NCBI GenBank assembly: GCA_965205865.1
Contig: CBDBHR010000029.1
Span: forward strand, 672,001-736,000
Source: a bacterium
Lineage (GTDB): Bacteria; SAR324; NAC60-12
Length of the DNA: 64,000 nt
Direction of reading: 5' to 3'
A program made the position numbers and the translations under genes. The number at the start of each line of letters is the position of its first letter. The stretch's first letter is position 1. Below are positions 3,706 to 62,527 of the stretch, in pieces. The notes beneath the pieces are model-generated. The model did no database searches, was not told the DNA's origin, and saw nothing but the letters and a program-made list of their open reading frames with translations.

Positions 3706-5685
3706 TCAGGTGCTTAATCCAATCAATTTGTTTTTCAACAAGGCAATTTGATCTCGTAACTCAGCAGCTCTTTCAAAATTAAGAATTTCGGCTGCCTGGC
3801 GCATTTCTGCTTCGTGTGCTTTAATTTGGGAATCCAACTGGCCGGTATTTTGATAGGAAACAGGCGTCTCTGCGACTAAGGGCGCGTCTTCGGCAGAAAC
3901 TAGTGAGTCTTGTATACGTTTGTAAACGGTCTGAGGGGTGATACGGTGTCTTAGGTTATAAGCTTTTTGTTTCTCGCGTCGTTGTTCGGTCAATTGGATT
4001 GCATTTTTCATTGAATCGGTGATGCGATCGGCATACATAATCACTGTTCCATTGACGTTTCGCGATGCACGACCAATCGTTTGAATCAGAGAAGTACTTG
4101 ATCGTAAAAAGCCTTCTTTATCAGCATCGAAAATCCCCACCAAGGATACTTCAGGGAGATCAAGGCCTTCCCGCAAAAGGTTGATTCCGATCAAGACGCT
4201 GAAGGCACCTTTTCTCAAGTTATAAAGAATCTGGGTTCGCTCGATGGCGTCGATATCAGAGTGCATGTAGCGGACTGGAACATTCAGGTCTTCGTAATAT
4301 TCGGTCAAGTCTTCCGCCATCCGCTTGGTCAAGGTAGTGATGAGTACGCGTTCCTTTCTTTCCAGTCGGATACGTAGTTCATGGAGCATGTCATCGACCT
4401 GTCCCATCATTGGGCGGACCTCAACTAGCGGATCCAATAATCCCGTTGGACGAATAACTTGTTCAACCACTGTACTATTCTTTTGTGCCAACTCGTAAGG
4501 ACCCGGAGTTGCCGAAACATAGACGCGTTGTTGAGTTGTCGCTTCAAATTCCTTGAATTTGAAAGGTCGGTTGTCCAAGGCGGAAGGAAGACGGAAGCCA
4601 TATTCAACCAAAGTGGATTTGCGAGTAAAATCCCCCTCATACATGCCTCTCAATTGCGGCATGGTAACATGGCTTTCGTCGATGAAAATCAACGCGTCCT
4701 TGGGAAAATAATCGATCAGTGTCGGAGATGCGGAACCAGGGGGCCGACGCTGGATAATCCGACTATAGTTTTCAATTCCCTTGCAAAAGCCTGTTTCTTC
4801 CATCATTTCCAAATCATATTCAGTTCTTTGTTTCAACCGTTGGAGTTCGACAATTTTTCCTTGTTTGTCAAATTCTTCTAAGCGTTTTTTTAATTCTTGC
4901 CGAATCATTTTCAGGGTCGTGGGCAATCGATTCGCCGGAGTGACATAATGGGAATTGGGAAAAATTGCGATGCGGGATAAAGTATCGATTTTTTTCCCGG
5001 TAAGGGGATCGAATTTCGTCAACTGCTCCACTTCATCACCAAACAATTCGACTCGAATCGCAAAATCCGATTCAGCCATATAAATGTCAATGACATCGCC
5101 CCTCACCCGAAAGGCGCCCCGATGAAAATCGATATCATTGCGTTCGTAGCGCAACTCGATTAATCGTTGCAATAGAGAGTTTCTGGAAAGTTGGTCTCCA
5201 GTTCTAAAAAAAAGCATCATGTCTCCGTATTCTTGCGGAGATCCCAAACCATAAATACAGGAAACGCTGCTAACAATGACGACATCTTCTCTTTCTATAA
5301 GCGAACGGGTTGCGGAAAGGCGAAGCCTCTCCAATTCATCGTTGATGGATGTATCTTTTTCAATATACAAATCACGGCTCGCAACATAAGCTTCTGGTTG
5401 GTAATAGTCATAAAAACTGACGAAATATTCGATCGCATTGTTTGGAAAATAATCCTTGAATTCATTGTAAAGTTGGGCGGCCAGAGTTTTATTATGGGCG
5501 ATAACCAGTGTGGGACGTTGCCAATGTTGAATAATGTTGGCCATAGTGAAAGTTTTTCCGGAACCGGTAATTCCCAGTAATACCTGATGCCTTTTATTTT
5601 GCTTCAGGCTGTCCAACAGAGTTTGGATCGCTTGAGGCTGATCTCCTTTGGGAGCATAATCCGCACTGAGTTCAAACTGAGACAC
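3706..5685 (-). CDS. uvrB: Excinuclease ABC subunit B
   Basis: GITGSGKTFT, YYQPEAY beta-hairpin, GINLLREGLDLPEV, C-terminal UVR motif. Confidence 0.98.
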   Translation of the reverse strand: MSQFELSADYAPKGDQPQAIQTLLDSLKQNKRHQVLLGITGSGKTFTMANIIQHWQRPTLVIAHNKTLAAQLYNEFKDYFPNNAIEYFVSFYDYYQPEAYVASRDLYIEKDTSINDELERLRLSATRSLIEREDVVIVSSVSCIYGLGSPQEYGDMMLFFRTGDQLSRNSLLQRLIELRYERNDIDFHRGAFRVRGDVIDIYMAESDFAIRVELFGDEVEQLTKFDPLTGKKIDTLSRIAIFPNSHYVTPANRLPTTLKMIRQELKKRLEEFDKQGKIVELQRLKQRTEYDLEMMEETGFCKGIENYSRIIQRRPPGSASPTLIDYFPKDALIFIDESHVTMPQLRGMYEGDFTRKSTLVEYGFRLPSALDNRPFKFKEFEATTQQRVYVSATPGPYELAQKNSTVVEQVIRPTGLLDPLVEVRPMMGQVDDMLHELRIRLERKERVLITTLTKRMAEDLTEYYEDLNVPVRYMHSDIDAIERTQILYNLRKGAFSVLIGINLLREGLDLPEVSLVGIFDADKEGFLRSSTSLIQTIGRASRNVNGTVIMYADRITDSMKNAIQLTEQRREKQKAYNLRHRITPQTVYKRIQDSLVSAEDAPLVAETPVSYQNTGQLDSQIKAHEAEMRQAAEILNFERAAELRDQIALLKNKLIGLST

Positions 5686-5746: not shown

Positions 5747-6559
5747 TTATAAATCAATCACCGGGGAAGGCCACTGTACATCTTGATCATCGTAATAAAC
5801 TTTTAGCACATATAGACCATAAGGAGGAGCGGTTTTTCCACTTTTCTGACGATCTTTGCTTTGCAGAATATCAGGAATATCCTCCGGAAATAGACGCTGT
5901 TCTCCCACGGCAACTAAGGTACCGGTGATGATCCGAACCATGTGCTGTAAAAATGAATTCGCCTCAACTTCGATGCGTATGGAAGCATAAGGAGTATGGA
6001 TGGGAGAGACAACCAAGTCTTTAATGGTCTTCACAGGAGAAGGAGCCAAACATTGAGATGCACGAAAGGCAGAAAAGTCATGTTCTCCAATAAAGTGCCT
6101 GGCTGCTTGCCGCATTGCTTTTAAATTCAATGATTTACGGAGCCACCAACTATAATGGGAATTGAATGGAGAAGGGTAGGATTTGTTATGAATAAGATAG
6201 CGATACCGTTTTGCAAAGCAACTACGACGGGCATGAAACGTGGACGAAACAGGTAATACATACTTTACGGCGACGTCAGCAGGAAGAACCGCATTAAGAG
6301 CAGAACACCAACTTTCGGCAGAAAAGTTTGCGTCCGAAAAAAAATGCGCAGTTTGATTGATAGCGTGTACTTTGCTGTCTGTCCGTCCCGCACCAAAAAC
6401 TTTTACAGCACTTCCTGTTAGGGTAAGGATTGCTTTTTCAAGCTCCCCCTCGATTGTATTTTTATCATTTTGGATTTGCCATCCATGATAATTGAATCCA
6501 TCGTACGAGAGGAGTATGAGCCAATTGCGGAGTGAGGGATTATCTTCCAAAAAAACCAA
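5747..6559 (-). CDS. truA: tRNA pseudouridine(38-40) synthase
   Basis: YDG..YHGWQ, GAGRTDSKVHA, HDFSAF, FLQHMVR. Confidence 0.96.
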   Translation of the reverse strand: MVFLEDNPSLRNWLILLSYDGFNYHGWQIQNDKNTIEGELEKAILTLTGSAVKVFGAGRTDSKVHAINQTAHFFSDANFSAESWCSALNAVLPADVAVKYVLPVSSTFHARRSCFAKRYRYLIHNKSYPSPFNSHYSWWLRKSLNLKAMRQAARHFIGEHDFSAFRASQCLAPSPVKTIKDLVVSPIHTPYASIRIEVEANSFLQHMVRIITGTLVAVGEQRLFPEDIPDILQSKDRQKSGKTAPPYGLYVLKVYYDDQDVQWPSPVIDL

Positions 6560-23386: not shown

Positions 23387-23500
23387 GGGACTTGACCCCT
23401 TTATTGGGGATGGCACTCTGTGTGGTGACGCCTGGATGAGAAGGGGGCAAAAAAACTGGACTCATTCCTAATCAAATAATCAAAGGCCTGACCCCATCTC

Positions 23501-23587
23501 TCATGACTCGGGGACTCGGCGGGTCGTTACTGCCTTACCGAGTAAGAGACTTTCACTCTCTATTTCTTGCCAGCTTTCCTGGCGCAC
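23501..23587 (-). mobile_element. 5' fragment (87 nt) of the repeat-targeting group II intron
   Basis: Identical to the GTGCGCCAGGAAAG.. start of the intron ending at 62414; 5' exon is GGGGACAGGTT. Confidence 0.9.
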
Positions 23588-23627
23588 AACCTGTCCCCAT
23601 CTCTCGCCGTCATTGGTATCCCTGAGC

Positions 23628-26726: not shown

Positions 26727-26812
26727 TTTTCTGATGACTAATTAATTGGAATAAACCCTACCTCTGGTGGGGGACTCCTATAGGTTTGACCGTGCGCAGT
26801 GGTCATATTTTA

Positions 26813-27003
26813 GTCCCGGAGGGACGAAAGGTCATAGCTCAGCCATTGATGGCTGGGGACCGATTTTTATGATGGATCCAGTCCCGGAGGGACGACACTT
26901 AAAGCGCACTGAAGAAAAAGTGTCGTCCCTCTGGGACTAAAAACGTTTTGTGGCCTATCCCAGCCATAAATGGCTGGGATAGGCCCTGTCACCCCTCCGG
27001 GGT
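26813..27003. repeat. Palindromic REP-like element (AGTCCCGGAGGGACG / CAGCCAT..ATGGCTG hairpins)
   Basis: AGTCCCGGAGGGACG twice plus inverted CGTCCCTCTGGGACT; CCCAGCCATAAATGGCTGGG hairpin. Confidence 0.7.
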
Positions 27004-45335: not shown

Positions 45336-46107
45336 GGGGTCAGGCCTTTGATTATTTGATTAGCAACGAGTCTAGTTTTTTTGCTCCCTTTTCATTTAAT
45401 CAAAGTCACCGTAAAGAACTGACTTATAGTGGTTTCCAGCCACCTTTCGTCATTCCTCCGGTACAGATCCGGACGTGCGCTGCTAACGTATCCGGCTCCT
45501 GCTTCGAGTCAGACGCTCAAACGTTGCCGTTTGGCGCACCCTGCTTAAACCGCTCTCTGATTTTACCGGCCTCTGAGTTCCGAACACAGGAGGGCAAGCA
45601 GAATTCCTCTCAGCCAAGTCCCTTTGCTCCACAGGCTCCGTTGATTTCCTTTGCAATATTACTCTCTACAAATGATCTCATTGTTCGCCGCTTCATCGCT
45701 ACTACGAACTTGTCCGACTTCCTGAAGACGTAGATATCGGGGTTATTTATTAATTTTCCCGATCCGACTACCAATGGAATGTTGACAGTCATCCTCAGGA
45801 TCTCCCAGGTTCCGGTCAAGAAACTTCCACACATGCACCGGGTCTTTGACTCCGCCAGGCTCAGCCGGGACTCACGCTAAGGCCTTCGGTTGATGTTGCC
45901 TTCCCCACCAGATCACAAGGTCAGCGCCTGAGACTATGATTTCGGAGCTCAATACCGAGCCTGTGTTCTCCCCTGTCAACGCTTAGCGCCTATCCTTGCG
46001 AATAACCACTCATGACTCGGGGACTCGGCGGGTCGTTACTGCCTTACCGAGTAAGAGACTTTCACTCTCTATTTCTTGCCAGCTTTCCTGGCGCACAGCC
46101 TGACCCC
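45336..46107. repeat. GGGGTCAGG inverted-repeat doublet (REPIN-like) interrupted by an intron
   Basis: GGGGTCAGGCCTTTGATT ... AATCAAA|intron|AGCCTGACCCC. Confidence 0.85.
45405..46096 (-). mobile_element. ORF-less group II intron (692 nt), deletion derivative of the intron at 60458-62414
   Basis: GTGCG 5' end, domain V GAGCCGGATACGTTAGCAGCGCACGTCCGGATC, domain VI with bulged A, ..GTGAC 3' end. Confidence 0.93.
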
Positions 46108-50035: not shown

Positions 50036-51083
50036 GGGGTCAGGCTTGAAAGTTTGAAACTTCAAGCAAGTATTTGACGTTTCAGTTCCTCTAATTGATT
50101 TTGGAGACCCTCGGATTCCTTCAATCGTTGTCTCAACCGGTGCACTCCAAAGCTAATCGTAGAATCGTCTCGATTGCAAACTTTTCCGACCTTCCGAATC
50201 GTTGCGGACTTCCAATCGAAAGCTAACATGCCAATCATCGCACGGGCTTCACTCAACTTTCGTGACTGCACGGCACTTCTTAATTCCTTCTCCTGCAGTT
50301 GATAAACTTGAGCCACTTGATGAATGATCCGTTCTAAAAGAGGAGGAGAGCAGGGGATGTTTTCGAGCTTCTTCAAAACCGAGGTCACAAAATGATCTTC
50401 TCCAATGATCTCTGAATGGGCAGAGCCTTTTTGAAAATTGACCGGCGAAGCAATGTTTCTCCCACTCCGGATATAATCCTCATAAAGTTTTCTGGCCTCT
50501 CCCCGTTTTGGGGAAAAGTGAGACAATCCCCAATCCGTATGCAACCATTCCAGCCGCCGCTTTCCCAAGTAAGCCAAATGGCTGCACCATGGGAAATCAA
50601 CCAACTCTTTGGCCACACCCGCTCGAATCGGATTGAGATGAATATAACGAATCAAGGCTAACAAATAGTTTTCTTGATCAACTATCAAGGCTTTATAACG
50701 TCCCTGAAATAAGTGGCCCATGCGTTTTTGCCGTTGATTGATCCAACGCGTGTAGCGAAATGAGATATTTTGCATGATCGGAGCAAGAGGGATCGCTCCC
50801 ACTTCAATGGCTAAATGGACATGATTGCTCATTAAACAAAAAGCGTGAATCCGATGATCAAAGCGTTGGTAACCTTCTTGGAGTAAGTGATAAAATTGTC
50901 GATAGTCGGGGGAACTGAAAAAAATGGGTTGCCCTCCATTGCCACGAAGCATCACATGATAAAGCGCACCAGGATAGTAAAGGCGTAGCTTACGGGCCAT
51001 CTTTAGAAACAAGCGAGAAGGAAAGTAAAATCGATTTAAAGAAAAAAATAACACTACTTTTCCAAACTTTCAAGCCTGACCCC
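50036..51083 (-). mobile_element. Y1 transposase element copy 1, bounded by 21-bp perfect inverted repeats (intron site empty)
   Basis: GGGGTCAGGCTTGAAAGTTTG at 50036 and CAAACTTTCAAGCCTGACCCC ending at 51083. Confidence 0.9.
50062..51000 (-). CDS. REP-associated tyrosine (Y1/HUH) transposase with DnaA C-terminal-like HTH
   Basis: YHVMLRGN, CLMSNHVHL (HUH), GHLFQGRY, YIHLNP.RAG; C-terminal EAR..IG...NRD.STI helix-turn-helix; start at MARK. Confidence 0.9.
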   Translation of the reverse strand: MARKLRLYYPGALYHVMLRGNGGQPIFFSSPDYRQFYHLLQEGYQRFDHRIHAFCLMSNHVHLAIEVGAIPLAPIMQNISFRYTRWINQRQKRMGHLFQGRYKALIVDQENYLLALIRYIHLNPIRAGVAKELVDFPWCSHLAYLGKRRLEWLHTDWGLSHFSPKRGEARKLYEDYIRSGRNIASPVNFQKGSAHSEIIGEDHFVTSVLKKLENIPCSPPLLERIIHQVAQVYQLQEKELRSAVQSRKLSEARAMIGMLAFDWKSATIRKVGKVCNRDDSTISFGVHRLRQRLKESEGLQNQLEELKRQILA

Positions 51084-51515
51084 CTTTATAACTGTTATTG
51101 TAATCCTTTCTGAGATCACTGGGGGAGAATGTGGTAAATGCAGATAATCTCCCAGAACAAGCTGTAGGGTATGCTGACCCAGTTCGAGATCAATCTCTAC
51201 TTCTGTCTGTCCCAACCCGAAATGTACAATCTGATTAGTGGCTGGAAGAGATTGATCAAATGATGGCATATCACCTTCAGCCACATCGATGAGAACATGG
51301 TGATGCCCTGTATTGGGAAACTGTATGCCAGCTGGAGCAATTCCCAGCCCCTTCAGTCCAAATCGTATGGTCACTGGTGAGGTGACAACTGCCCCATCCT
51401 CAGGCGACTGGATATAGACCCTTGCATCATCTGGGGCTGGTGACCTCTCCAGTGCTTCGGCAAGTGCAATGGGAACAAAAAGAAGAAGAATCGTGATCCA
51501 TAGTATCGTTCTCAT
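51054..51515 (-). CDS. DUF4399 domain secreted protein
   Basis: Signal peptide, V.IRFGL.G..IAPAG, TGHHHVLID, HFG.GQTE, G.HTLQL..GD..H. Confidence 0.88.
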   Translation of the reverse strand: MRTILWITILLLFVPIALAEALERSPAPDDARVYIQSPEDGAVVTSPVTIRFGLKGLGIAPAGIQFPNTGHHHVLIDVAEGDMPSFDQSLPATNQIVHFGLGQTEVEIDLELGQHTLQLVLGDYLHLPHSPPVISERITITVIKGVRLESLEK

Positions 51516-51647
51516 GGTGGTCCTTTCATATTGAATTGAATAACTCAAATATCTCATCACTCATTTTTACCTGGTTTAGATCAGGATTTAGAAAAGGTAA
51601 GCAAACCCCGAGAAAGAAGCAACGCGAAAGTTCGACCGGAGGCAAGA

Positions 51648-51686
51648 AGGGGGCCCAGGGTGTCATATCCTCAGGCCCCTTTTTTA
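51648..51686. terminator. Possible rho-independent terminator
   Basis: GGGGCC..GGCCCC stem followed by a T run. Confidence 0.45.
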
Positions 51687-51745
51687 TTAGAGCGACTCAC
51701 AATGGCTATCGAATCATTCCGTTATGATCTTCACGAATGATTGCG

Positions 51746-52231
51746 CTAATCCCTGTCTTCACTACCATGAGACTCTCCGGAGCTTTCAGAGCCTTCAGAA
51801 CCTTCGCCACCTCCATGTCCTGTTTCTGTTCCTGTTTCCGGGTGAGCAGTCCATGTGTCAAAAGTTCCTACAGCAGCAAGTTGCACAGGTATCTTTTGTC
51901 CTGGACGAAGATCAGTTCTGGAAGTTGGTCCTAATTCAATCCCATTTGATTGATGCACTTCAACACGAACGTCATAGAGCGTTGTTGTTAAGGTATTTTC
52001 CACGGTACCTTCAAAGGCATTGATCTGGCTGTTATAAACTATGATCAACCTCATGCCATTGACAACATGGTCATACTTTTGACTCAGAGTATATCTTCCT
52101 GTCTGTTCGGCAGCATCACCTCCTTGACCTTCACCACCCGTTTCTGAAACACGTTCTCCTTGAGCACATGCGTTTAATACCAATAATGATCCTAGTAACG
52201 AGATCATTAGTACTTTAAAAACATTTTTCAT
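51746..52231 (-). CDS. Hypothetical lipoprotein
   Basis: Signal peptide with LNAC lipobox; Gly/Glu-rich termini. Confidence 0.7.
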   Translation of the reverse strand: MKNVFKVLMISLLGSLLVLNACAQGERVSETGGEGQGGDAAEQTGRYTLSQKYDHVVNGMRLIIVYNSQINAFEGTVENTLTTTLYDVRVEVHQSNGIELGPTSRTDLRPGQKIPVQLAAVGTFDTWTAHPETGTETGHGGGEGSEGSESSGESHGSEDRD

Positions 52232-52548
52232 AATTTCCTCATTTCAATCAGGATTGATAAACAGGACGTCGACCTTCGACATCCACTGAGGCAAGTATAA
52301 GCAATCCAATGTTTTTTGAGGGTCAACGGAGTGTAAAACTTTTGTAAATTAATTCGATCTGCATCCATCATCAATTTTTGACGGAAGCAATTGCGGAGGG
52401 ATCCGGCAACGTTGGGGTAGCCATCCTAGTCAAACTGTTTGAAATTATCTGAAAGCACCAGGCATGGATTCTCTCCACGGCCTGCCGATTCAATTAGAAA
52501 AAGGATTTTCCAAGTATTAAATGGGGTCAGGCTTGAAATTTTGAAACT

Positions 52549-53487
52549 TCAAGCAAGTATTTGACGTTTCAGTTCCTCTAATTGATTTTGGAGACCCTCG
52601 GATTCCTTCAATCGTTGTCTCAACCGGTGCACTCCAAAGCTAATCGTAGAATCGTCTCGATTGCAAACTTTTCCGACCTTCCGAATCGTTGCGGACTTCC
52701 AATCGAAAGCTAACATGCCAATCATCGCACGGGCTTCACTCAACTTTCGTGACTGCCCGGCACTTCTTAATTCCTTCTCCTGCAGTTGATTAACTTGAGC
52801 CACTTGATGAATGATCCGTTCTAAAAGAGGAGGAGAGCAGGGGATGTTTTCGAGCTTCTTCAAAACCGAGGTCACAAAATGATCTTCTCCAATGATCTCT
52901 GAATGGGCAGAGCCTTTTTGAAAATTGACCGGCGAAGCAATGTTTCTCCCACTCCGGATATAATCCTCATAAAGTTTTCTGGCCTCTCCCCGTTTTGGGG
53001 AAAAGTGAGACAATCCCCAATCCGTATGCAACCATTCCAGCCGCCGCTTTCCCAAGTAAGCCAAATGGCTGCACCATGGGAAATCAACCAACTCTTTGGC
53101 CACGCCCGCTCGAATCGGATTGAGATGAATATAACGAATCAAGGCTAACAAATAGTTTTCTTGATCAACTAACAAGGCTTTATAACGTCCCTGAAATAAG
53201 TGGCCCATGCGTTTTTGCCGTTGATTGATCCAACGCGTGTAGCGAAATGAGATATTTTGCATGATCGGAGCAAGAGGGATCGCTCCCACTTCAATGGCTA
53301 AATGGACATGATTGCTCATTAAACAAAAAGCGTGAATCCGATGATCAAAGCGTTGGTAACCTTCTTGGAGTAAGTGATAAAATTGTCGATAGTCGGGGGA
53401 ACTGAAAAAAATGGGTTGCCCTCCATTGCCACGAAGCATCACATGATAAAGCGCACCAGGATAGTAAAGGCGTGGTTTACGGGCCAT
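52549..53487 (-). CDS. REP-associated tyrosine (Y1/HUH) transposase, copy 2
   Basis: Differs from copy 1 by a few residues. Confidence 0.9.
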   Translation of the reverse strand: MARKPRLYYPGALYHVMLRGNGGQPIFFSSPDYRQFYHLLQEGYQRFDHRIHAFCLMSNHVHLAIEVGAIPLAPIMQNISFRYTRWINQRQKRMGHLFQGRYKALLVDQENYLLALIRYIHLNPIRAGVAKELVDFPWCSHLAYLGKRRLEWLHTDWGLSHFSPKRGEARKLYEDYIRSGRNIASPVNFQKGSAHSEIIGEDHFVTSVLKKLENIPCSPPLLERIIHQVAQVNQLQEKELRSAGQSRKLSEARAMIGMLAFDWKSATIRKVGKVCNRDDSTISFGVHRLRQRLKESEGLQNQLEELKRQILA

Positions 53488-53559
53488 CTTTAGAAACAAG
53501 CGAGAAGGAAAGTAAAATCGATTTAAAGAAAAAAATAACACTACTTTTCCAAACTTTCA

Positions 53560-54248
53560 GTCACCGTAAAGAACTGACTTATAGTGGTTTCCAGCCACCT
53601 TTCGTCATTCCTCCGGTACAGATCCGGACGTGCGCTGCTAACGCATCCGGCTCCTGCTTCGAGTCAGACGCTCAAACGTTGCCGTTTGGCGCACCCTGCT
53701 TAAACCGCTCTCTGATTTTACGGCCTCTGAGTTCCGAACACAGGAGGGCAAGCAGAATTCCTCTCAGCCAAGTCCCTTTGCTCCACAGGCTCCGTTGATT
53801 TCCTTTGCATTGTTACTCTCTGCAAATGATCTCATTGTTCGCCGCTTCATCGCTACTACGAACTTGTCCGACTTCCTGAAGACGTAGATATCGGGGTTAT
53901 TTATTAATTTTCCCGATCCGACTACCAATAGAATGTTGACAGTCGTCTTCAGGATCTCCCAGGTTCCGATCAAGAAACTTCCACACATGCACCGGGTCTT
54001 TGACTCCGCCAGGCTGCCGAGACTCACGCTAACGCCTTCGGTTGATATTGCCTTCCCCACCAGACCACAAGGTCAGCGCCTGAAACTATGATTTCGGAGC
54101 TCAATACCGAGCCTATGTTCTCCCCTGTCAACGCTTAGCGCCTATCCTTGCGAATAACCACTCATGACTCGGGGACTCGGCGGGTCGTTACTGCCTTACC
54201 GAGTAAGAGACTTTCACTCTCTATTTCTTGCCAGCTTTCCTGGCGCAC
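53560..54248 (-). mobile_element. ORF-less group II intron (689 nt)
   Basis: Same ends and same deletion junction as 45405-46096. Confidence 0.93.
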
Positions 54249-54414
54249 AGCCTGACCCCCTTTTTTCCGCTCCAGCGGCTCAGATTCAGCATACTCACAC
54301 GGCCCCGACAACACATCATCACGGTAGTGATCATAGAAAGCTGCTTGATCAATGAACTTGAGATTATTGGCTGAAGACAACATAAATAGGGGAGCAGTTC
54401 GAACATAAAAATCG

Positions 54415-54852
54415 TTGATTCAAAGGATGGCAAACATGCAAAAAACCACTAAAAACAAGAAAACGCTTTCAAAGCAACTTAGAGAAGAGGTGACTCAACT
54501 CATTAAAAAATTTAATCATGAAGAAATTAATTCATCACAATGCTATTATGTCCCTCGTTACCGGGGACCATTTGTATACTTAGATCGATTTGCTTACGGG
54601 CAACAAGAACCCGTAGCTCGCATCAAATATACTGGAAATTGGGACGATTGGGAATTTGCGATATTTAAATGGAGCAGCGAAACGTATGATACTGAGGAGT
54701 TCTTCTTTCCAGGGGCTGAATGCCTGGATGGATCTATCAAAGGGGCTTTGAAAGCAGGAATGCGGGCTTATCCTATCACGGACAAGAGCAATCCAGAAGG
54801 TCTCTTTGCTGAACTGGGACAGTTTCTCAATAGCTTATTACCCAAACGATAG
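54415..54852 (+). CDS. Hypothetical protein
   Basis: Open 145-aa frame with ARIKYTG..DWEFAIFKWS motif; true start probably 54427 or 54436. Confidence 0.7.
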   Translation: MIQRMANMQKTTKNKKTLSKQLREEVTQLIKKFNHEEINSSQCYYVPRYRGPFVYLDRFAYGQQEPVARIKYTGNWDDWEFAIFKWSSETYDTEEFFFPGAECLDGSIKGALKAGMRAYPITDKSNPEGLFAELGQFLNSLLPKR

Positions 54853-55313
54853 CGAAGAGAACTACCAAAAGTGGCGAAGGTATTTTATTAGAATACGTGT
54901 TGTAATAACATTTTCATCAATATGTTGGATTACCAGGTGAATACAAAAGCCCACACCAGGCTGGTCGAATAATCGGGACACCACCCCATTGATGTGGATG
55001 CTGTCGCAATTGCCCAGTTTACCGACAAGGACGTCTTCCAAGAATATCTGTATATTTGGTGGCAATTAAGCAACGCTTGGATTTAGATTTTGATGCGCAG
55101 GAAGTCAATACGGTCTGAAGAATACTCTACTGAAGATGAGGAGAAAAGAAAATGAATATAATAACACCCAGAATCGTTTTGAACGAACTTTGCCAATTAA
55201 AGTTGGCTTGTAAACCCGATGATCGTGAAGCCCCCAATATCATAAACAACGCGCGTCTGCGCGGGGATGGAACGATTGAATCCAAGTTTAGTAATGATCA
55301 GGAGATTGATTCC

Positions 55314-55859
55314 ATGATTCGTCTCACCAAAATTGTTCTTACAATGATTTGCCTTTTATCTTTTGCTCAGCCCTGTAATTCTCAAAGCTTGCAAGTTGTC
55401 GAGTCAACTTTCTGCATCGAGTTGGATGGTCCAGCCTGTATACGTCCTGTTGTTTCGGATTCGACCGAGGTTTCTCTATCAAATCTATATCAAGGCAAGA
55501 TTTATTTTTGGAGCTCGATTCAAACAAATATTAATAGGGATATTATGCATGTCTGGTCTGCTTCTAACCGCACTGATAAGTGGGCTGAACCTGTTCATGT
55601 ATCCTGGTCCGATCACGCCTGGAATTTAACGAACGAAATCATTGGGGTCGCAGAAAATTTTTTAAAGATTATTTACAACAGAGGGGAAACCCAGTTGCAC
55701 AGTGTTCAGGGTATAATTTTGGGTGTGAACAAGTCCCCGCGCTTCCGAACATATAGCAGTATCCAAGCAGCCCCAGGAACCTACAGCGTAGAAGTTCGAA
55801 ATATGAACAACCAAGTTGTGCAGGGTGGAGAGCCAAAAACTTTAACAATCAGTCACTAG
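55314..55859 (+). CDS. Hypothetical secreted protein
   Basis: AGGAG RBS, signal peptide MIRLTKIVLTMICLLSFA, beta-rich C-terminus (FRTYS..PG.Y.VEV). Confidence 0.7.
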   Translation: MIRLTKIVLTMICLLSFAQPCNSQSLQVVESTFCIELDGPACIRPVVSDSTEVSLSNLYQGKIYFWSSIQTNINRDIMHVWSASNRTDKWAEPVHVSWSDHAWNLTNEIIGVAENFLKIIYNRGETQLHSVQGIILGVNKSPRFRTYSSIQAAPGTYSVEVRNMNNQVVQGGEPKTLTISH

Positions 55860-55948
55860 GTCGAAAACAGATTGGCGGTTGGATAGATGTCGGTGGAGAT
55901 CGCCACGATACTCGATACGAAGTGTTTATTGAAGAAAATTTGGTCCCA

Positions 55949-56188
55949 ATTAGGGATAGGGAGGGGTTTTTCTCCCCTCCCTCCCACACCACCTCGCATA
56001 TGGGTCCGTACCGGGCGATTCCCAAAGAGTGTCGGGTCGTAGCCGGACCAGATTTGCAACCACAAATCTGTACGTATATTCGTCCCACAGCGCACCTATT
56101 TTAATCATCTCCACCGGTCGGCTTCATCAATGTAGAGCCTATGGGATAGAGCGTTCTCTTGGGTTCGGGCCTCCACTCTCCAGGAGCT
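55949..56188 (-). mobile_element. 3' half (domains III-VI) of an ORF-less class C-like group II intron
   Basis: Short domain V AATCGCCCGGTACGGACCCATATGCGAGGTGGT (CGC triad); domain VI GGGAGGGG..CCCCTCCCTATCCCTAAT. Confidence 0.8.
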
Positions 56189-57062
56189 GTCGGGTCGGAG
56201 GAGGCGCGTTTCCGCTAGCCTCCGTCCGCCGCCCAAACCGGACATGCAGTTTTCCCGCATCCGGCTTTCACAGAGAAGTCCGTTTGCCGAAGGGACCAAT
56301 CGAAGGAATTAGTGAGATCAGATTTACTAATTTTCATCTTGTAAATCTTGTCCACTAAGGAGTGAACCTTCTTTGCTCCCGTTAGATTGATCCAGTCAGC
56401 CAGTCTCCTCGGGCCATGAGTTCTGGGTCTTTCACTTACCGAACTTTCCACCTCACTGTCCTTACTCATCTGACTTCCTTTCTCATTCCAACCTTCTCTG
56501 CCCATCGCCTTCCCCAGCTCACTCTGCTGCCGATCCCTCGGTCACGTAGCTCTCACTACGCTTCAGGTACTATTCGATGGTCCGACTACTCAACACGCTT
56601 CGGTTCCCATTTCGCTTTCGCTTATAGGGTCCCTTATCCTAGTGCCACCTAAGAACGCCCTGAGTCCTCCTGGGGTCACTCATGATTCTTCCTCACCGTG
56701 TCGTCCGCACACACCTTGGTATTGCAGGGGGGAATCCAACTGCTTTCGCCATCATAGTGCAAGCTCAACCATTCCCTGCTGTTGGCCGACCGGTTCGTCT
56801 CTGGAGTAGCCTCCTTGACTACGACCCGGTGATTCTCCGCAAACCCTTCAGATTCCACCTCACGGTGGACACCCTGTCCTCCGGAAGTTCACTTCGGTGC
56901 ATTTGGCCCTTTCGACCTCCCATTGTGCTTAAAGCGCCCGGGATGGCGCCCTGGTAAACATTCCGGCCAGCGAGGCATTACCCCCGCTTTTGGATATCAG
57001 CCTGGGATCTCAGGCTGAGTGGGACTTGAACCCACCTGAATCATGCGCTGCACAGTGCGCAC
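56189..57062 (-). mobile_element. Second-family group II intron with the RT almost entirely deleted, nested in another intron
   Basis: GTGCGC 5' end, RT N-terminal relic KKVHSLVDKIY, domain V AAAGCCGGATGCGGGAAAACTGCATGTCCGGTTT, ..CCGACCCGAC 3' end. Confidence 0.85.
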
Positions 57063-57456
57063 TACGAACTTGTCCGAATTCCTGAAGACGTAGATATCGG
57101 GGTTATTTATTAATTTTCCCGATCCGACTACCAATGGAATGCTGACAGTCGTCTTCAGGATCTCCCAGGTTCCGGTCAAGAAACTTCCACACATGCACCG
57201 GATCTTCGACTCCGCCAGGCTCGACCGGGACTCACGCTAACGCCTTCGGTTGATGTTGCCTTCCCCACCAGACTACAAGGTCAGCACCTGAAACTATGAT
57301 TTCGGAGCTCAATACCGAGCCTATGTTCTCCCCTGTCAACGCTTAGCGCCTATCCTTACGGATAACCACCCATGACTCGGGGCCTCGGCGGGTCGTTACT
57401 GCCTTACCGAGTAAGAGACTTTCACTCTCTATTTCTTGCCAGCTTTCCTGGCGCAC
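57063..57456 (-). mobile_element. 5' half (domains I-II) of the repeat-targeting intron
   Basis: Near-identical to the 5' 394 nt of the intron at 60458-62414; 5' exon is GGGGTCAGGCT. Confidence 0.92.
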
Positions 57457-57850
57457 AGCCTGACCCCCTTTTTGCAATAATCATCTAAAAAATCCGATTC
57501 TTGAAAAGAATCGCTCAATTTAGGTTATAATATCTCAAATTTCTATTTTATTATGGAACATCTACGATCTCCAGAGCATCTGGAAAACAAGAATTCAATT
57601 CCTCATGAAGTTTTTTACGAGCAACTTTTATGCAATCAAGAGATTCTAAAATGTCTTCAGGTTCTAATAAAACATCTGACGAACCTTGAGTCGAATGTCG
57701 GGCGTCTAAATTTTCCGGTTGATAATGAATTCAAAAGAAATACGGACTACATTGCTCTCAGGTTCCTTTGAAATGCTGTAAAATTTCAAAATAGTTTTTG
57801 TTTTCATTTCTTATTCGCTAGTGTCTATTTTATTTTTTGGCTTAGCTTCA

Positions 57851-58738
57851 GAACCTGTTTGAAAGTCATTTAATTCTCTTTAACATCAAGCAAATCATAG
57901 CGACATAGATCATGTTTTCAGAGTTTTTTGTTTTTCTTTCATAATCGATGTTGAGTCTTCGATACCATCCAAACCAGGAAAAGGTTCTTTCGACGATCCA
58001 CCTTTTCGGTAGGACCTGAAAGCCCGTTCCTTGGAGGTTTAGAGTGATCTCAAGTTCACATTGAAATCGATTCCATAACCATTGGGCTAATTCCCCTCGA
58101 TAACCTCCGTCGGCCCAAATCATCTGAATCGAAAAGAACCAGCTAAACATCGATTCCAAAAGATCGTAAGCACTTTTGGAATCGGAGGCATTGGCATCAG
58201 TGACTTTAACCATGAGAGGAATTCCCGAGATATCGACAGCTACATGCCTTTTATGCCCTTTGATTCGTTTATTTCCATCAAAACCTCGACTATCAGCCAG
58301 TTCCGTGGTTTTGACGGATTGACTATCAATCATTGCAGCACTGGGTTCGGGAGCTCTGCCCATTTCTATTCGGGTTTGCCGATGGAGAAACTGGTGAATC
58401 AGGAACCAAGTGTAGTTCTTGCGCCATTTATTGTAGTGGTAATAAACACTTTGCCAAGGAGGAAAATCTTTGGGAAGCATTCTCCATTGACAACCCGTGG
58501 TCACTACATACAAAATGGCGTTTATGATAACTCGTAGTTCCCATTTACGAAGGTGGGCTCCACGAGTTGAAAGTTCGGGAAGGTACTCTTGAAGTCTTTC
58601 CCATTGTTTATCACTGACATCACTGTTATAACCTGAACGTTCCATGTTCACTCCTTGTTATTAAGGTTTCATTTTTCTCAAAATGAATGTGACATGGAAC
58701 ACTTCCAATAGGAAGCTCAACTTATTTCAAACAGGTTC
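57851..58738 (-). mobile_element. IS5 family (IS1031-like) element; transposase at 57866-58651
   Basis: TIR GAACCTGTTTGAAA, TCA target duplication; GCQWRMLP.DFPPW, IDSQSVK, ADGGY, RWIVERTF.W. Confidence 0.95.
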
Positions 58739-59208
58739 TCAAGTTCTATAGGCTTTTTGCAATAAGGAATTTCTGTGATTCTGCAATTATCGGGGCAATA
58801 ATTCTCATCGTCATTTATATCATCATCACCCCAATTCAATTTGCAATCTGCCGGACAATAATATTTTCCCTTGTAATACCCTCCACTTGTGGGCATGCAA
58901 TATTCTGCCGTCAAATATGATTCCAAGTATTTTTGTAAATCTAAATATGCTTCTTTGTTTAATTCCATTATATTTGAATAATTCTCTAATTCTAATTTAT
59001 ATAATTTTTCCTCATATACCTCTAATTGAGTGGTTTCAAAATTTTTCAAATCTTCCTCGGCATTTGGCCCATATGCTGAAATCATCGCTGAAACAGTCAG
59101 CTTTATAATTTCAGAAATTAAGAATTTTTCTATTTCCTGAGATAAAGCAACAGGACTCGTTGCCAAAATAATTCCTCCAGACAAACAAATTATTATCCAT
59201 TTTTTCAT
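58717..59208 (-). CDS. Hypothetical secreted Cys-rich protein; C-terminus replaced by IS sequence
   Basis: Signal peptide; YCP.DC / YCPDNC; the frame runs into the IS end. Confidence 0.65.
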   Translation of the reverse strand: MKKWIIICLSGGIILATSPVALSQEIEKFLISEIIKLTVSAMISAYGPNAEEDLKNFETTQLEVYEEKLYKLELENYSNIMELNKEAYLDLQKYLESYLTAEYCMPTSGGYYKGKYYCPADCKLNWGDDDINDDENYCPDNCRITEIPYCKKPIELENLFEIS

Positions 59209-59446
59209 TTAATTTCCCTTTCAATTTGATTCCTATTTTTTCGGTATCATACCGGCAATTTTATCCAAATTCTTGTTTATTTCTTGCAATTCCCGATATT
59301 TGGCAATCTCAATTGCCATTGGGAACGCGGTTATGATAATTAACATAATCTGTATATTTAGTTCTCAAATGCACAGAAATTTCGTGAACCATTTTTACTG
59401 CGAATTCATTATCTTTATTTAGGGTCAGGCTTGAAAGTTTGAAACT

Positions 59447-60385
59447 TCAAGCAAGTATTTGACGTTTCAGTTCCTCTAATTGATTTTGGAGACCCTCGGA
59501 TTCCTTCAATCGTTGTCTCAACCGGTGCACTCCAAAGCTAATCGTAGAATCGTCTCGATTGCAAACTTTTCCGACCTCCCGAATCGTTGCGGACTTCCAA
59601 TCGAAAGCTAACATGCCAATCATCGCACGGGCTTCACTCAACTTTCGTGACTGCACGGCACTTCTTAATTCCTTCTCCTCCAGTTGATAAACTTGAGCCA
59701 CTTGATGAATGATCCGTTCTAAAAGAGGAGGAGAACAAGGGATGTTTTCGAGCTTCTTCAAAACCGAGGTCACAAAATGATCTTCTCCAATGATCTCTGA
59801 ATGGGCAGAGCCTTTTTGAAAATTGACCGGCGAAGCAATGTTTCTCCCACTCCGGATATAATCCTCATAAAGTTTTCTGGCCTCTCCCCGTTTTGGGGAA
59901 AAGTGAGACAATCCCCAATCCGTATGCAACCATTCCAGCCGCCGCTTTCCCAAGTAAGCCAAATGGCTGCACCATGGGAAATCAACCAACTCTTTGGCCA
60001 CACCCGCTCGAATCGGATTGAGATGAATATAACGAATCAAGGCTAACAAATAGTTTTCTTGATCAACTAACAAGGCTTTATAACGTCCCTGAAATAAGTG
60101 GCCCATGCGTTTTTGCCGTTGATTGATCCAACGCGTGTAGCGAAATGAGATATTTTGCATGATCGGAGCAAGAGGGATCGCTCCCACTTCAATGGCTAAA
60201 TGGACATGATTGCTCATTAAACAAAAAGCGTTAATCCGATGATCAAAGCGTTGGTAACCTTCTTGGAGTAAGTGATAAAATTGTCGATAGTCGGGGGAAC
60301 TGAAAAAAATGGGTTGCCCTCCATTGCCACGAAGCATCACATGATAAAGCGCACCAGGATAGTAAAGGCGTGGTTTACGGGCCAT
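59447..60385 (-). CDS. REP-associated tyrosine (Y1/HUH) transposase, copy 3
   Basis: Differs from copies 1 and 2 by a few residues. Confidence 0.9.
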   Translation of the reverse strand: MARKPRLYYPGALYHVMLRGNGGQPIFFSSPDYRQFYHLLQEGYQRFDHRINAFCLMSNHVHLAIEVGAIPLAPIMQNISFRYTRWINQRQKRMGHLFQGRYKALLVDQENYLLALIRYIHLNPIRAGVAKELVDFPWCSHLAYLGKRRLEWLHTDWGLSHFSPKRGEARKLYEDYIRSGRNIASPVNFQKGSAHSEIIGEDHFVTSVLKKLENIPCSPPLLERIIHQVAQVYQLEEKELRSAVQSRKLSEARAMIGMLAFDWKSATIREVGKVCNRDDSTISFGVHRLRQRLKESEGLQNQLEELKRQILA

Positions 60386-60457
60386 CTTTAGAAACAAGCG
60401 AGAAGGAAAGTAAAATCGATTTAAAGAAAAAAATAACACTACTTTTCCAAACTTTCA

Positions 60458-62414
60458 GTCACCGTAAAGAACTGACTTATAGTGGTTTCCAGCCACCTTT
60501 CGTCATTCCTCCGGTACAAATCCGGACGTGCGCTGCTAACGCATCCGGCTCCTGCTTCGAGTCAGACGCTCAAACGTTGATTCGGATACGGGTGGGTTGT
60601 CCTTACAGAAGGAATGTGTAGTTTGACCAGTACTTTGAAGCGTTCCCAGTTCATCCTCTTTGCTTTGTGACTCCTCCGTCTTAGTGATTTGAACCACGTC
60701 CGATGGATTTCCCTGCGAAAAGCATTCAAGGAACTCCGGTTGCCGGGGACTCCATAGTAGTTGTACAGACCGTTTAAAACAGACCTGAGCCATTTTCCTT
60801 GTTCATGCGCATTTTCATGACGTTTGCGTTTCGCTTCAAGTTTGATCTCTTTGAGCTTCTTTCGCAACCTTTTGGAAATGGTGAGACGGGTGAGCTTGAA
60901 TTTTCCATCCTTTATCCGAGTGTCACAGACATGAGTGAATCCTGAAAAGTCGAAACTTTCCGGTTTTCCCAGACCTTGTTTTTCCCGGTTATCGGCGGCA
61001 AATCGCCCGAACTCGATGAGGCGTGTTTTCTCTTCATGTAAAGTCAGTCCAAATTGAGAGAGGCGTTCTCTTAGTTGGCGATTAAATTTCTGGCCATCTT
61101 CAGAATATTGAAAACCCACGACAAAATCATCCGCATAGCGAATGATGTAAACTTCCCCCCGAGCTTCCCGCCTTCTCCATTGATTAACCCATAGATCTAA
61201 AACATAGTGCAGGTAGATATTTGAATAGATTGGAGACACTACCGAACCTTGTGGTGTTCCGACCACCGTTTCAGACCACTTCCCCTCTTCGATGACTCCG
61301 GCGCGCAACGTTTTCTCTGCTAAACGCAGAATCCTTTTGTCGGAGATTCGATGCTCGATAAATTTCAGCATCCAATCATGCTGAATTGTGTCGAAAAATC
61401 CTTGAATATCCGCATCTAAGATGTAGCTCACTTTCCGTTGGGTAATGGCCACATACAAAGCGTCTAAGGCTTGATGTTGGCTTCGTCCGGGTCGGAACCC
61501 GTAACTAAACCCAAGGAAATCCTCCTCATAGATCGATTCCAACGTCCAAACAAGGGCTTGTTGTACGATCTTGTCTTCAAGTGCGGCTATTCCGATTGGC
61601 CTTTGACGGCCATCCGGTTTAGGAACCCACACTCGCAGAGAAGGGTGAGGACGATAACGTTCTTGGTGGATCCTCCCGTGCAGATCGTTAATCCGCTCCA
61701 GGAGATTTATGCCATACTCATTCCAGGTCTCCTCGTCCACTCCCGCCGCTGAGTTGCGATTGAGATCAAAGTAAGCTCTCCGCAGTAAGTCAGGGTTGAT
61801 GTGATGAAAGAGATTGTTGAATTGAAGATGGGGGTTCCTCTTCGCCCTTTGGCGCACCCTGCTTAAACCGCTCTCTGATTTTACCGGCCTCTGAGTTCCG
61901 AACACAGGAGGGCAAGCAGAATTCCTCTCAGCCAAGTCCCTTTGCTCCACAGGCTCCGTTGATTTCCTTTGCATTGTTACTCTCTGCAAATGATCTCATT
62001 GTTCGCCGCTTCATCGCTACTACGAACTTGTCCGACTTCCTGAAGACGTAGATATCGGGGTTATTTATTAATTTTCCCGATCCGACTACCAATAGAATGT
62101 TGACAGTCGTCTTCAGGATCTCCCAGGTTCCGATCAAGAAACTTCCACACATGCACCGGGTCTTTGACTCCACCAGGCTCAGCCGAGACTCACGCTAACG
62201 CCTTCGGTTGATATTGCCTTCCCCACCAGACCACAAGGTCAGCGCCTGAAACTATGATTTCGGAGCTCAATACCGAGCCTATGTTCTCCCCTGTCAACGC
62301 TTAGCGCCTATCCTTGCGAATAACCACTCATGACTCGGGGACTCGGCGGGTCGTTACTGCCTTACCGAGTAAGAGACTTTCACTCTCTATTTCTTGCCAG
62401 CTTTCCTGGCGCAC
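60458..62414 (-). mobile_element. Full-length group II intron (1957 nt), bacterial class D-like
   Basis: GTGCG start, AGC-triad domain V, branch-A domain VI, AC end, RT ORF in domain IV. Confidence 0.95.
60562..61989 (-). CDS. ltrA: Group II intron reverse transcriptase/maturase without endonuclease domain
   Basis: AAGVD, PKPDGRQRPIGI, SYGFRPGRS, GTPQG, YADD, X domain G..NYY; ends HPYP with no HNH domain; exact start uncertain. Confidence 0.95.
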   Translation of the reverse strand: MQRVTMQRKSTEPVEQRDLAERNSACPPVFGTQRPVKSESGLSRVRQRAKRNPHLQFNNLFHHINPDLLRRAYFDLNRNSAAGVDEETWNEYGINLLERINDLHGRIHQERYRPHPSLRVWVPKPDGRQRPIGIAALEDKIVQQALVWTLESIYEEDFLGFSYGFRPGRSQHQALDALYVAITQRKVSYILDADIQGFFDTIQHDWMLKFIEHRISDKRILRLAEKTLRAGVIEEGKWSETVVGTPQGSVVSPIYSNIYLHYVLDLWVNQWRRREARGEVYIIRYADDFVVGFQYSEDGQKFNRQLRERLSQFGLTLHEEKTRLIEFGRFAADNREKQGLGKPESFDFSGFTHVCDTRIKDGKFKLTRLTISKRLRKKLKEIKLEAKRKRHENAHEQGKWLRSVLNGLYNYYGVPGNRSSLNAFRREIHRTWFKSLRRRSHKAKRMNWERFKVLVKLHIPSVRTTHPYPNQRLSV

Positions 62415-62527
62415 AGCCTGACCCCCTTTATTTTCTTGCCGAAGGATAGAATTTGTAGGATGCTATAGTGGCAGTATTGAAATAAAAGAAGAAAAAGCGG
62501 CTGTTGGTCTTTGCTGGAGGGAAGATG

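Follow-up and report, generated by a model that had tools for sequence, protein, structure and literature searches.

A putative endonuclease-less group II intron in the terminal inverted repeat of TIRtron elements of a SAR324 bacterium

Three element copies and two forms of one intron

The DNA examined here is a stretch of 64,000 nt from a bacterial assembly of the SAR324 lineage (GCA_965205865.1, contig CBDBHR010000029.1, positions 672,001 to 736,000 of the forward strand), the whole of which is referred to as the window. Three near-identical elements of 1048 bp, each with a gene for a Y1/HUH transposase, were found on its minus strand at 50036-62425 by sequence reading and a three-copy alignment, with approximately 99% identity apart from intron inserts. 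The copies, which are TIRtrons encoding a TIRYT transposase (see below), are bounded by perfect inverted repeats of 21 bp (GGGGTCAGGCTTGAAAGTTTG), the exception being the right end of copy 3, where one G is missing and the plus strand reads AGGGTCAGGCT. The left repeat of copy 1 is intact, while those of copies 2 and 3 are split between their 11th and 12th bases (GGGGTCAGGCT, then TGAAAG) by group II introns of 689 nt, without an open reading frame (ORF), and of 1957 nt, encoding a reverse transcriptase (RT), respectively. An earlier note, made on this DNA from its letters, had described these three states, and was found to be correct to the base; the coordinates likewise bore out its statement that the intron is co-oriented with the transposase and has its 3' end 72 nt before the transposase ATG (60385 in copy 3). 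The features of the three copies are as follows.

50036..51083, minus strand: TIRtron copy 1, intact (sequence reading, motif matches, three-copy alignment)
51063-51083, minus strand: left repeat of copy 1, intact, an empty homing site (sequence reading)
50036-50056: right repeat of copy 1 (motif match)
50062..51000, minus strand: copy 1 gene for the TIRYT transposase, encoding 312 aa counted from its ATG (ORF list, Pfam, NCBIfam)
52523..53559, minus strand: body of TIRtron copy 2, downstream of the intron, starting TGAAAGTTTGG (sequence reading, alignment)
52549-53487, minus strand: copy 2 gene for the TIRYT transposase, intact, 312 codons (ORF list)
53560..54248, minus strand: 689-nt group II intron without ORF, splitting the left repeat of copy 2 (RF02005, 155.8 bits; boundaries GTGCG...GGTGAC read)
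54249..54259, minus strand: 5' exon of the copy 2 intron, GGGGTCAGGCT, made up of the outermost 11 nt of the left repeat (sequence reading, motif match)
59421..60457, minus strand: body of TIRtron copy 3, downstream of the intron (sequence reading, motif search, alignment)
59447-60385, minus strand: copy 3 gene for the TIRYT transposase, intact, 312 codons (ORF list)
60458..62414, minus strand: 1957-nt group II intron of full length, splitting the left repeat of copy 3 (RF02005, 164 bits; boundaries read)
60562..61974, minus strand: RT/maturase without endonuclease domain, start uncertain (ATG at 61974 or GTG at 61857)
62415..62425, minus strand: 5' exon of the copy 3 intron, made up of the outermost 11 nt of the left repeat (sequence reading, motif match)

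Both inserts start with GTGCG, end with GGTGAC and lie in the orientation of the transposase gene. The Rfam family RF02005 (group-II-D1D4-6) was matched over its full model by four intron copies, which scored 156-165 bits (gathering score 49). As read by eye, domain V would be a 34-nt hairpin beginning GAGC, with a candidate bulged A 8 nt from the intron 3' end. The RT ORF is intact, its translation of 475 residues contains YADD, and it passes the NCBIfam equivalog for group II intron RT/maturases (TIGR04416; 340 bits against a cut-off of 300), with group II intron RTs as its nearest solved structures. No Pfam domain besides RVT_1 was identified in this RT, nor was an endonuclease domain found by Pfam scan or on reading of the translation. 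From these sequence features the intron was assigned to the endonuclease-less bacterial group II introns of the RF02005 family, with a small, IIB-like ribozyme. The earlier note had viewed it in the context of the class D introns, a placement not borne out by the RT; the class D C-terminal motif LX3AX3PXLF[V/A]HW (as quoted in the accessible part of PMC4615759) is absent from the 475-residue translation as read by eye. Membership of class E would be a guess. Indirect points in its favour are the size of the intron without its ORF, about 690 nt, which falls within the 450-700 nt quoted for the ribozymes of IIE/IIF introns (PMC3753933), and the lack of an endonuclease domain in the RT. Alignment showed the 689-nt form to be the 1957-nt intron with its ORF deleted.

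Regarding the host element, Pfam Y1_Tnp was identified in all three transposase copies (E=3e-14 to 1e-13), and the HVH triad and the tyrosine of YIHLNP were visible when the DNA was translated by eye. A C-terminal Bac_DnaA_C domain scored 32.6, 29.1 and 33.2 bits, above the Pfam cut-off of 31.5 in two of the three copies; the structure of DnaA domain IV (1j1v) also matches (E=0.0066), and look-up in a protein atlas returned clusters of Y1_Tnp/Bac_DnaA_C look-alikes. The repeat start, GGGGTCAG, fits the published consensus GGGGWSAS. Because this combination of Y1_Tnp and Bac_DnaA_C in one protein and the repeat start match the published description of TIRYTs and TIRtrons, the element was filed as a TIRtron encoding a TIRYT, that is, a Y1/HUH transposase with a DnaA-like C-terminal domain.

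Two other affiliations were set aside. The element had previously been called REP/RAYT-like (REP, repetitive extragenic palindrome; RAYT, REP-associated tyrosine transposase). The best NCBIfam model for the transposase is the RAYT equivalog REP_Tyr_transpos (NF047646), its 71.1 bits lying under the cut-off of 80, and the gene is flanked by inverted repeats rather than REP hairpins, so that it is not a RAYT unit in the strict sense, in which palindromic REPs with a GTAG-type tag would be expected on either side. Membership of IS200/IS605 was rejected in view of the perfect 21-bp inverted repeats and of a hairpin at the right end only (left end z = 0.83, not significant).

A promoter-like site was observed on the minus strand at 51045-51073 (TTGAAA, 17 nt, TATTTT, with TG; a consensus match only), which starts at the insertion point in copy 1. 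The first base of its -35 hexamer is the last base of the 5' exon, and insertion of the intron turns TTGAAA into CTGAAA. If this site is real, the transposase transcript would start downstream of the intron, and the intron would need read-through from outside. Furthermore, a DUF4399 gene (51054-51560, minus strand) enters the left end of copy 1, the TIRtron supplying its final codons and stop codon.

The insertion site and its pairing with the intron

Further copies of the intron, or parts of it, were identified outside the three elements.

45405..46096, minus strand: 692-nt intron copy, likewise ORF-less and sharing the deletion junction of the 689-nt form (RF02005 search, alignment)
46097-46107 and 45336-45404: 80-bp inverted-repeat element without a transposase gene, hosting the 692-nt intron (sequence reading)
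57066..57467, minus strand: GGGGTCAGGCT, then a 391-nt 5' fragment of the intron at 57456..57066, ended by a fragment of a different group II intron (Rfam, sequence reading)
23500..23598, minus strand: GGGGACAGGTT, joined to the 5'-terminal ~88 nt of the intron at 23587..23500, with a GGGGTCAGGCC repeat after it (motif search, sequence reading)

As the earlier note had stated, each of the five intron 5' ends of the window is preceded by GGGG[T/A]CAGG[C/T]T (four GGGGTCAGGCT, one GGGGACAGGTT). A motif search for GGGGWCAGGYT gave eight occurrences in the 64 kb, where 0.08 were expected, and none of 100 shuffles reached eight. What the earlier note had seen is real, at a level far exceeding chance. 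The sequence GGGGTCAGGCT itself occurs seven times, five times on the minus strand and twice on the plus strand. Four of the five minus-strand sites are followed by the intron, with the left end of copy 1 empty; the two plus-strand sites belong to the right repeats of copies 1 and 2 and are empty, as is the variant right end of copy 3. All occupied sites have AAAG before the motif, with AAAT or TTTA at right ends. The 3' exon of occupied sites takes two forms, TGAAAGTTTGG where the host is the TIRtron and TTTGATTAAATG where it is the 80-bp repeat, and the recognized sequence would therefore lie upstream of the insertion point, extending at most one base beyond it. The homing site predicted by these comparisons is ...AAAGGGGGTCAGGCT followed, after the insertion point, by T. 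It forms the outer end of the TIRtron terminal inverted repeat and also ends gene-less short repeats, a second of which, related to the 80-bp one and carrying the TIRtron terminal motif, lies at 23495. The proposal of the earlier note that the terminal repeat of a Y1/HUH element serves as homing site of a retromobile group II intron, with three states adjacent to one another, is supported.

The second, different group II intron fragment (56189-57066, minus strand) scored 43.5 bits with RF00029 and 27.5 bits with RF02001, the latter under its gathering score of 32. At GTGCGC it adjoins the truncated first intron, which does not resume on the far side, giving no clean twintron. More intron-like ends were seen at about 55990-56110.

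A scan of a collection of genome contigs, among which the source genome is absent, with the 24-nt 5' end of the intron returned only one metagenome-assembled genome (MAG), OZ242383.1, with four matches in three loci at about 90% identity. All four intron 5' ends of this MAG follow the motif, three as GGGGTCTGGCT (duplicates of one locus) and one as GGGGGCAGGCT. In this MAG, too, the element is split at the corresponding base by an ORF-less intron, and the transposase gene of that element is internally deleted. The deletion junction of the MAG intron is nearly the same as that in the window, and a G-to-C change beside the junction is common to both in the alignment. Because junction and marker are shared, the ORF-less lineage probably arose before the two genomes diverged.

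A unit of about 115 nt, in which GGGGNCAGGYT is followed by ~88 nt from the intron 5' end and then by a GGGGTCRGGCC repeat, was also observed in both genomes (window 23484-23598; MAG locus L001, 2437-2550). The two are 90% identical, their flanks do not align, and the break lies at an ATGAG common to intron and repeat. This looks like a small chimeric repeat that was copied.

Occupation of the same site in a separate MAG also bears on whether the three states could be an artefact, with a single locus wrongly expanded during assembly. Near-identical, closely spaced repeats can mislead assemblers, but the three copies differ at about 13 non-conserved columns scattered between the repeat ends, their flanks are unrelated and different genes lie between them, and this explanation is scarcely credible.

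More distant relatives were available as seven plasmid-borne introns with RTs 54-56% identical, all seven of which matched RF02005 (177-195 bits). RF00029, the model of domains V/VI, matched five of them at 41-42.5 bits, the other two not being among the matches listed. Relative L011 lies 14 nt inside a GGGG...ACGCTAAG end (4452-4465 and 6379-6402), next to ORFs with DUF4158 and DDE_Tnp_Tn3; this end we take to be a Tn3-family repeat. Relatives L006 and L010 (~930-965) are situated about 80-100 nt from IS66-family genes, and their exon may be an IS66 tip. Relatives L005 and L009 (~935-963) directly follow a CTGT-N8-ACAG palindrome upstream of imuA. Three of the seven thus appear to be at transposon ends, which may be a common home for introns of the RF02005 family.

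The manner in which the intron could recognize its site was investigated using an alignment of 12 domain I segments (four from the window, one from the MAG and seven from the plasmid relatives). The relevant features, with the loop heptamer of each copy and its pairing with the exon, are listed below.

62173..62179, minus strand: 3' strand of a domain I helix, AGCCUG(G), first proposed as exon-binding site 1 (EBS1); partner UCAGGC at 62244-62249
62226..62232, minus strand: probable EBS1, GGUCUGG, intron positions 183-189, terminal loop of a domain I hairpin (relatives, Rfam alignments)
Loop heptamer of window copies 2 and 3: GGUCUGG, pairs, with three G-U
Loop heptamer of the window copy at 57 kb: AGUCUGG, pairs
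Loop heptamer of the window copy at 46 kb: GAUCUGG, mismatch at -2
Loop heptamer of the related MAG: AGCCUGG, fully Watson-Crick with CAGGCU, G-U at -7

The earlier note had taken AGCCUG at 62174-62179, complementary to the last six exon bases, for EBS1. The hexamer (AGCCTG in the DNA) is present at this position, but in the Rfam alignment it pairs with UCAGGC (62249..62244), the two being the 3' and 5' strands, respectively, of a domain I helix. AGCCUG is not in the Id3 loop, an outcome that the earlier note had itself named as one speaking against its assignment. In all 12 sequences this helix of six pairs is kept, with five pairs changed on both sides and 100% of cells paired; the whole structure tested had 95.7% of cells paired, a value not reached in any of 500 shuffles. 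A complement to the exon ending at -1 was instead found at intron positions 183-191 in six of the seven plasmid relatives, within the terminal loop of the preceding hairpin, and the seventh (L010) fits this loop with one mismatch by eye. The corresponding loop of the window intron reads GUGGUCUGG, in which GGUCUGG (62232..62226) pairs with exon UCAGGCU in the register of the relatives through four Watson-Crick and three G-U pairs. Between the MAG and the window copies the loop has changed from A to G and from C to U, with wobble pairing retained in three of the four window copies. The loop at 62226-62232 is accordingly listed here as the probable EBS1, AGCCUGG being its ancestral form, and the model of homing by pairing with the exon survives at this new position. 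The corrected assignment is relevant to any retargeting or assaying of the intron.

Two other candidates were rejected. AACCUG at intron positions 286-291, considered for EBS1, belongs to the basal helix of domain I, where as the 3' strand it pairs by eye with CCAGG at positions 6-10. ACCCC at about 352-356, considered for EBS2, lies within the stem of the domain II hairpin, where the MAG has a compensatory change.

The 3' strand of the helix described above, AGCCUGG (GGCCUGG in the MAG), was observed to be the same heptamer as the ancestral EBS1 loop, and the partner strand reads UCAGGC exactly as the exon target does, so that the intron holds an internal copy of its own intron-binding site 1 (IBS1). 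The seven plasmid relatives lack this likeness, which may reflect chance or an alternative pairing.

Spread of the intron and of its host

Taken together, it is probable that an endonuclease-less group II intron of the RF02005 family homes into the terminal inverted repeat of the TIRtron and into gene-less repeats with the same motif. In the retrohoming pathway that we infer, the intron RNA would recognize its site mainly through pairing of the EBS1 loop (GGUCUGG, ancestrally AGCCUGG) with UCAGGCU, and would reverse splice into the strand carrying the left end. Copying would then be performed by the RT of the intron itself, with priming probably dependent on the replication fork as there is no nuclease. 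The ORF-less deletion derivative would be mobilized in trans by the RT of full-length copies, having spread to at least two kinds of site, and insertion might also affect transposition of the element. Occurrence of the ORF-less form with one junction both in a TIRtron end and in the 80-bp repeat points to independent mobility of the intron.

Several findings weigh against this reading. Occupancy of the repeats is uneven (none of three right ends of the 21-bp repeat against four of five minus-strand sites), and the hypergeometric P of about 0.07 leaves this strand one-sidedness suggestive only; GC skew changes sign inside the window, following gene orientation, and does not settle which strand is leading. 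With RF00029 the full-length intron scored 28.8 bits, under the gathering score of 40. The proposed EBS1 pairing relies on wobbles for three of its seven pairs and has the mismatch at -2 in the 46-kb copy; in the MAG, where the repeat is changed to GGGGTCTGGCT at both ends, the loop AGCCUGG is unchanged and uncompensated, giving a U-U mismatch at -5. No position for EBS2 or EBS3 was consistent across nine introns in the alignment. The sample is also small, comprising one 64-kb window and three loci of one related MAG.

The distribution could alternatively have arisen through DNA recombination, whereby gene conversion or unequal crossing-over would have spread occupied ends after one ancient insertion. 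No more than 12 kb of DNA holds all the copies, their identity is about 99%, and the site is occupied in both genomes, so that the insertion is old. Duplication has also taken place in the MAG, where the three composites of intron and element share at least about 0.4 kb of 5' flank (up to about 0.8 kb between two of the loci) and lie in a repeated segment of 2.5 kb that includes a neighbouring gene; the composites are products of segmental duplication. However, the same site of the window is held by two intron forms with unrelated outer flanks, one intron copy has a different 3' exon in the 80-bp repeat, two truncated copies have yet other flanks, and the RT ORF is intact with its YADD. Recombination is therefore unlikely to be the source of the pattern.

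No GGGG-type repeat was found at the boundary of the MAG duplications, and a surrogate upstream end there was rejected. Four tandem 27-nt repeats were also noted within the spacer gene of the duplicated segment (MAG locus L003, 4150-4270, minus strand).

The earlier note had further suggested that intron and element travel together as a group II analogue of an IStron, the outer 11 nt remaining terminal so that the transposase would move both as one unit. In agreement with this, GGGGTCAGGCT remains at the outer boundary after insertion, the transposase ORF is intact in all three copies, and expression need not rely on splicing if the promoter-like site (a consensus match only) downstream of the insertion is active. 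The two composites of the window, however, hold different intron forms, with no pair of the same form at different sites; the ORF-less form is also present in a repeat without a transposase gene; and the MAG composites share flanks as part of the 2.5-kb segmental duplication. Moreover, the boundaries of intron and element differ, so that splicing cannot neutralize the insertion as in IStrons, and the terminal 11 nt have been moved 0.7-2 kb away from the rest of the left end. Insertion of RmInt1 is also said, in the accessible part of PMC5894124, to block the spread of its host insertion sequence (IS). Joint movement as one unit is thus considered very unlikely, and both the IStron analogy and the AGCCUG coordinates for EBS1 should be dropped.

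A mechanistic pairing of the two partners would go further. Both would act on the lagging-strand template at replication forks, a single-stranded DNA intermediate of transposition would be the substrate for reverse splicing, and intron-bearing ends would still be processed, resulting in joint spread. Every element and intron in the window has the same orientation, and no right-end repeat is occupied, which is compatible with such a pairing. Were it true, a strand-specific Y1 element would always present its left repeat in the orientation usable by an endonuclease-less intron, and the system would be a genuine group II counterpart of the IStron. The pairing is nonetheless regarded as improbable. 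Within the window and the one MAG, no sign was found of the intron being a functional partner of the transposase; on the preferred reading, that of independent homing, the intron is a parasite of the repeat family.

With respect to the surroundings, mobile elements are clustered in the 44-64 kb part of the window. An IS4/IS5-type DDE transposase gene (DUF4096 and DDE_Tnp_1; 57866-58651, minus strand) separates TIRtron copy 3 from the intron fragment. Further away, a match to the Acido-Lenti-1 small RNA was identified at 26812-26857 on the minus strand (41.3 bits, gathering score 37).

Comparison with known systems

The presence within 12 kb of empty, ORF-less-occupied and full-length-occupied versions of one homing site makes the locus convenient test material, suited to two questions: how an endonuclease-less intron chooses its sites, and what insertion does to the end of a Y1 transposon. 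The locus also adds TIRYT elements to the hosts of group II introns. According to the available portions of the TIRYT accounts (PMC3733652, PMC6006769), TIRYT transposition has had no experimental study, and the intact and split ends are candidate substrates for a first biochemistry of these enzymes.

TIRYTs are described, in the parts of these two papers that were accessible, as tyrosine transposases that resemble RAYTs and carry a helix-turn-helix (Bac_DnaA_C, HTH_23 or HTH_28) at the C-terminus, and TIRtrons as elements in which terminal inverted repeats sharing GGGGWSAS flank a TIRYT (Di Nocera et al. 2013, PMC3733652; Quentin et al. 2018, PMC6006769, subclass 2.1). As far as these descriptions extend, the elements of the window share with them the RAYT-related Y1/HUH protein, the Bac_DnaA_C-like helix-turn-helix, inverted repeats in place of REP hairpins, the GGGGWSAS start and gene-less short repeats. 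They differ in the presence of three near-identical copies in 12 kb and of a group II intron inside the repeat; the word 'intron' is absent from the text of PMC3733652 and 'group II' from that of PMC6006769.

IStrons, as presented in the available sections of PMC4227781, resemble the locus in joining a ribozyme and a transposase of the single-strand or HUH-related kind. In IStrons, however, a group I intron is fused to an element of IS200/IS605 or IS607 type, with common ends, and splicing removes everything, whereas the intron of the window is an independent retroelement lying 11 nt inside the end, splicing of which would leave the 1048-bp element behind.

A closer parallel for the ORF-less form is found in TeI3/TeI4 of Thermosynechococcus elongatus (PMC2882425, from the accessible part of its text). 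There, too, ORF-less introns derived from one deletion, with shared break-points, have proliferated beside RT-encoding copies and are presumably mobilized in trans. The RTs of that system possess an endonuclease domain and its families have differing EBS sequences, in contrast to the single target motif used in the window.

Association with repeats of other kinds has been noted by Tobes and Pareja, who found two of nine Pseudomonas putida intron copies to be REP-associated. A literature search returned no report pairing a group II intron with the end of a TIRYT, RAYT or IS200-type/Y1 element. The statement in the earlier note that such a pairing had not been described thus holds for Y1 elements; homing into the inverted repeats of an IS, on the other hand, has been published, for RmInt2 in ISRm17 (PMC4615759, in its accessible part).

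RmInt2 is an endonuclease-less intron that sits in the inverted repeats of ISRm17, a choice which doubles its targets and ensures that one of them is on the lagging-strand template, as set out in the available parts of two reports (Martinez-Rodriguez et al. 2014, PMC4615759; Toro et al. 2018, PMC5894124). To the same extent, the intron of the window resembles RmInt2 and RmInt1 of Sinorhizobium meliloti in its RT without endonuclease, its homing site in a terminal inverted repeat (there of an IS) and its several copies per genome, and its one-sided occupancy is consistent with a bias of the kind described for RmInt2, which inserts into the lagging-strand template (PMC4615759). It differs from these introns in lacking the class D motif and belonging to RF02005, in having a Y1/HUH TIRtron as host instead of a DDE insertion sequence, in occupying the left-end repeat only, and in having an ORF-less derivative that has spread in the window. 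The general picture is unchanged; it is already well established that bacterial group II introns inhabit the termini of other mobile elements. Homing into repeats of mobile DNA by endonuclease-less introns was thus known, while a group II intron in the end of a TIRtron represents a new combination.

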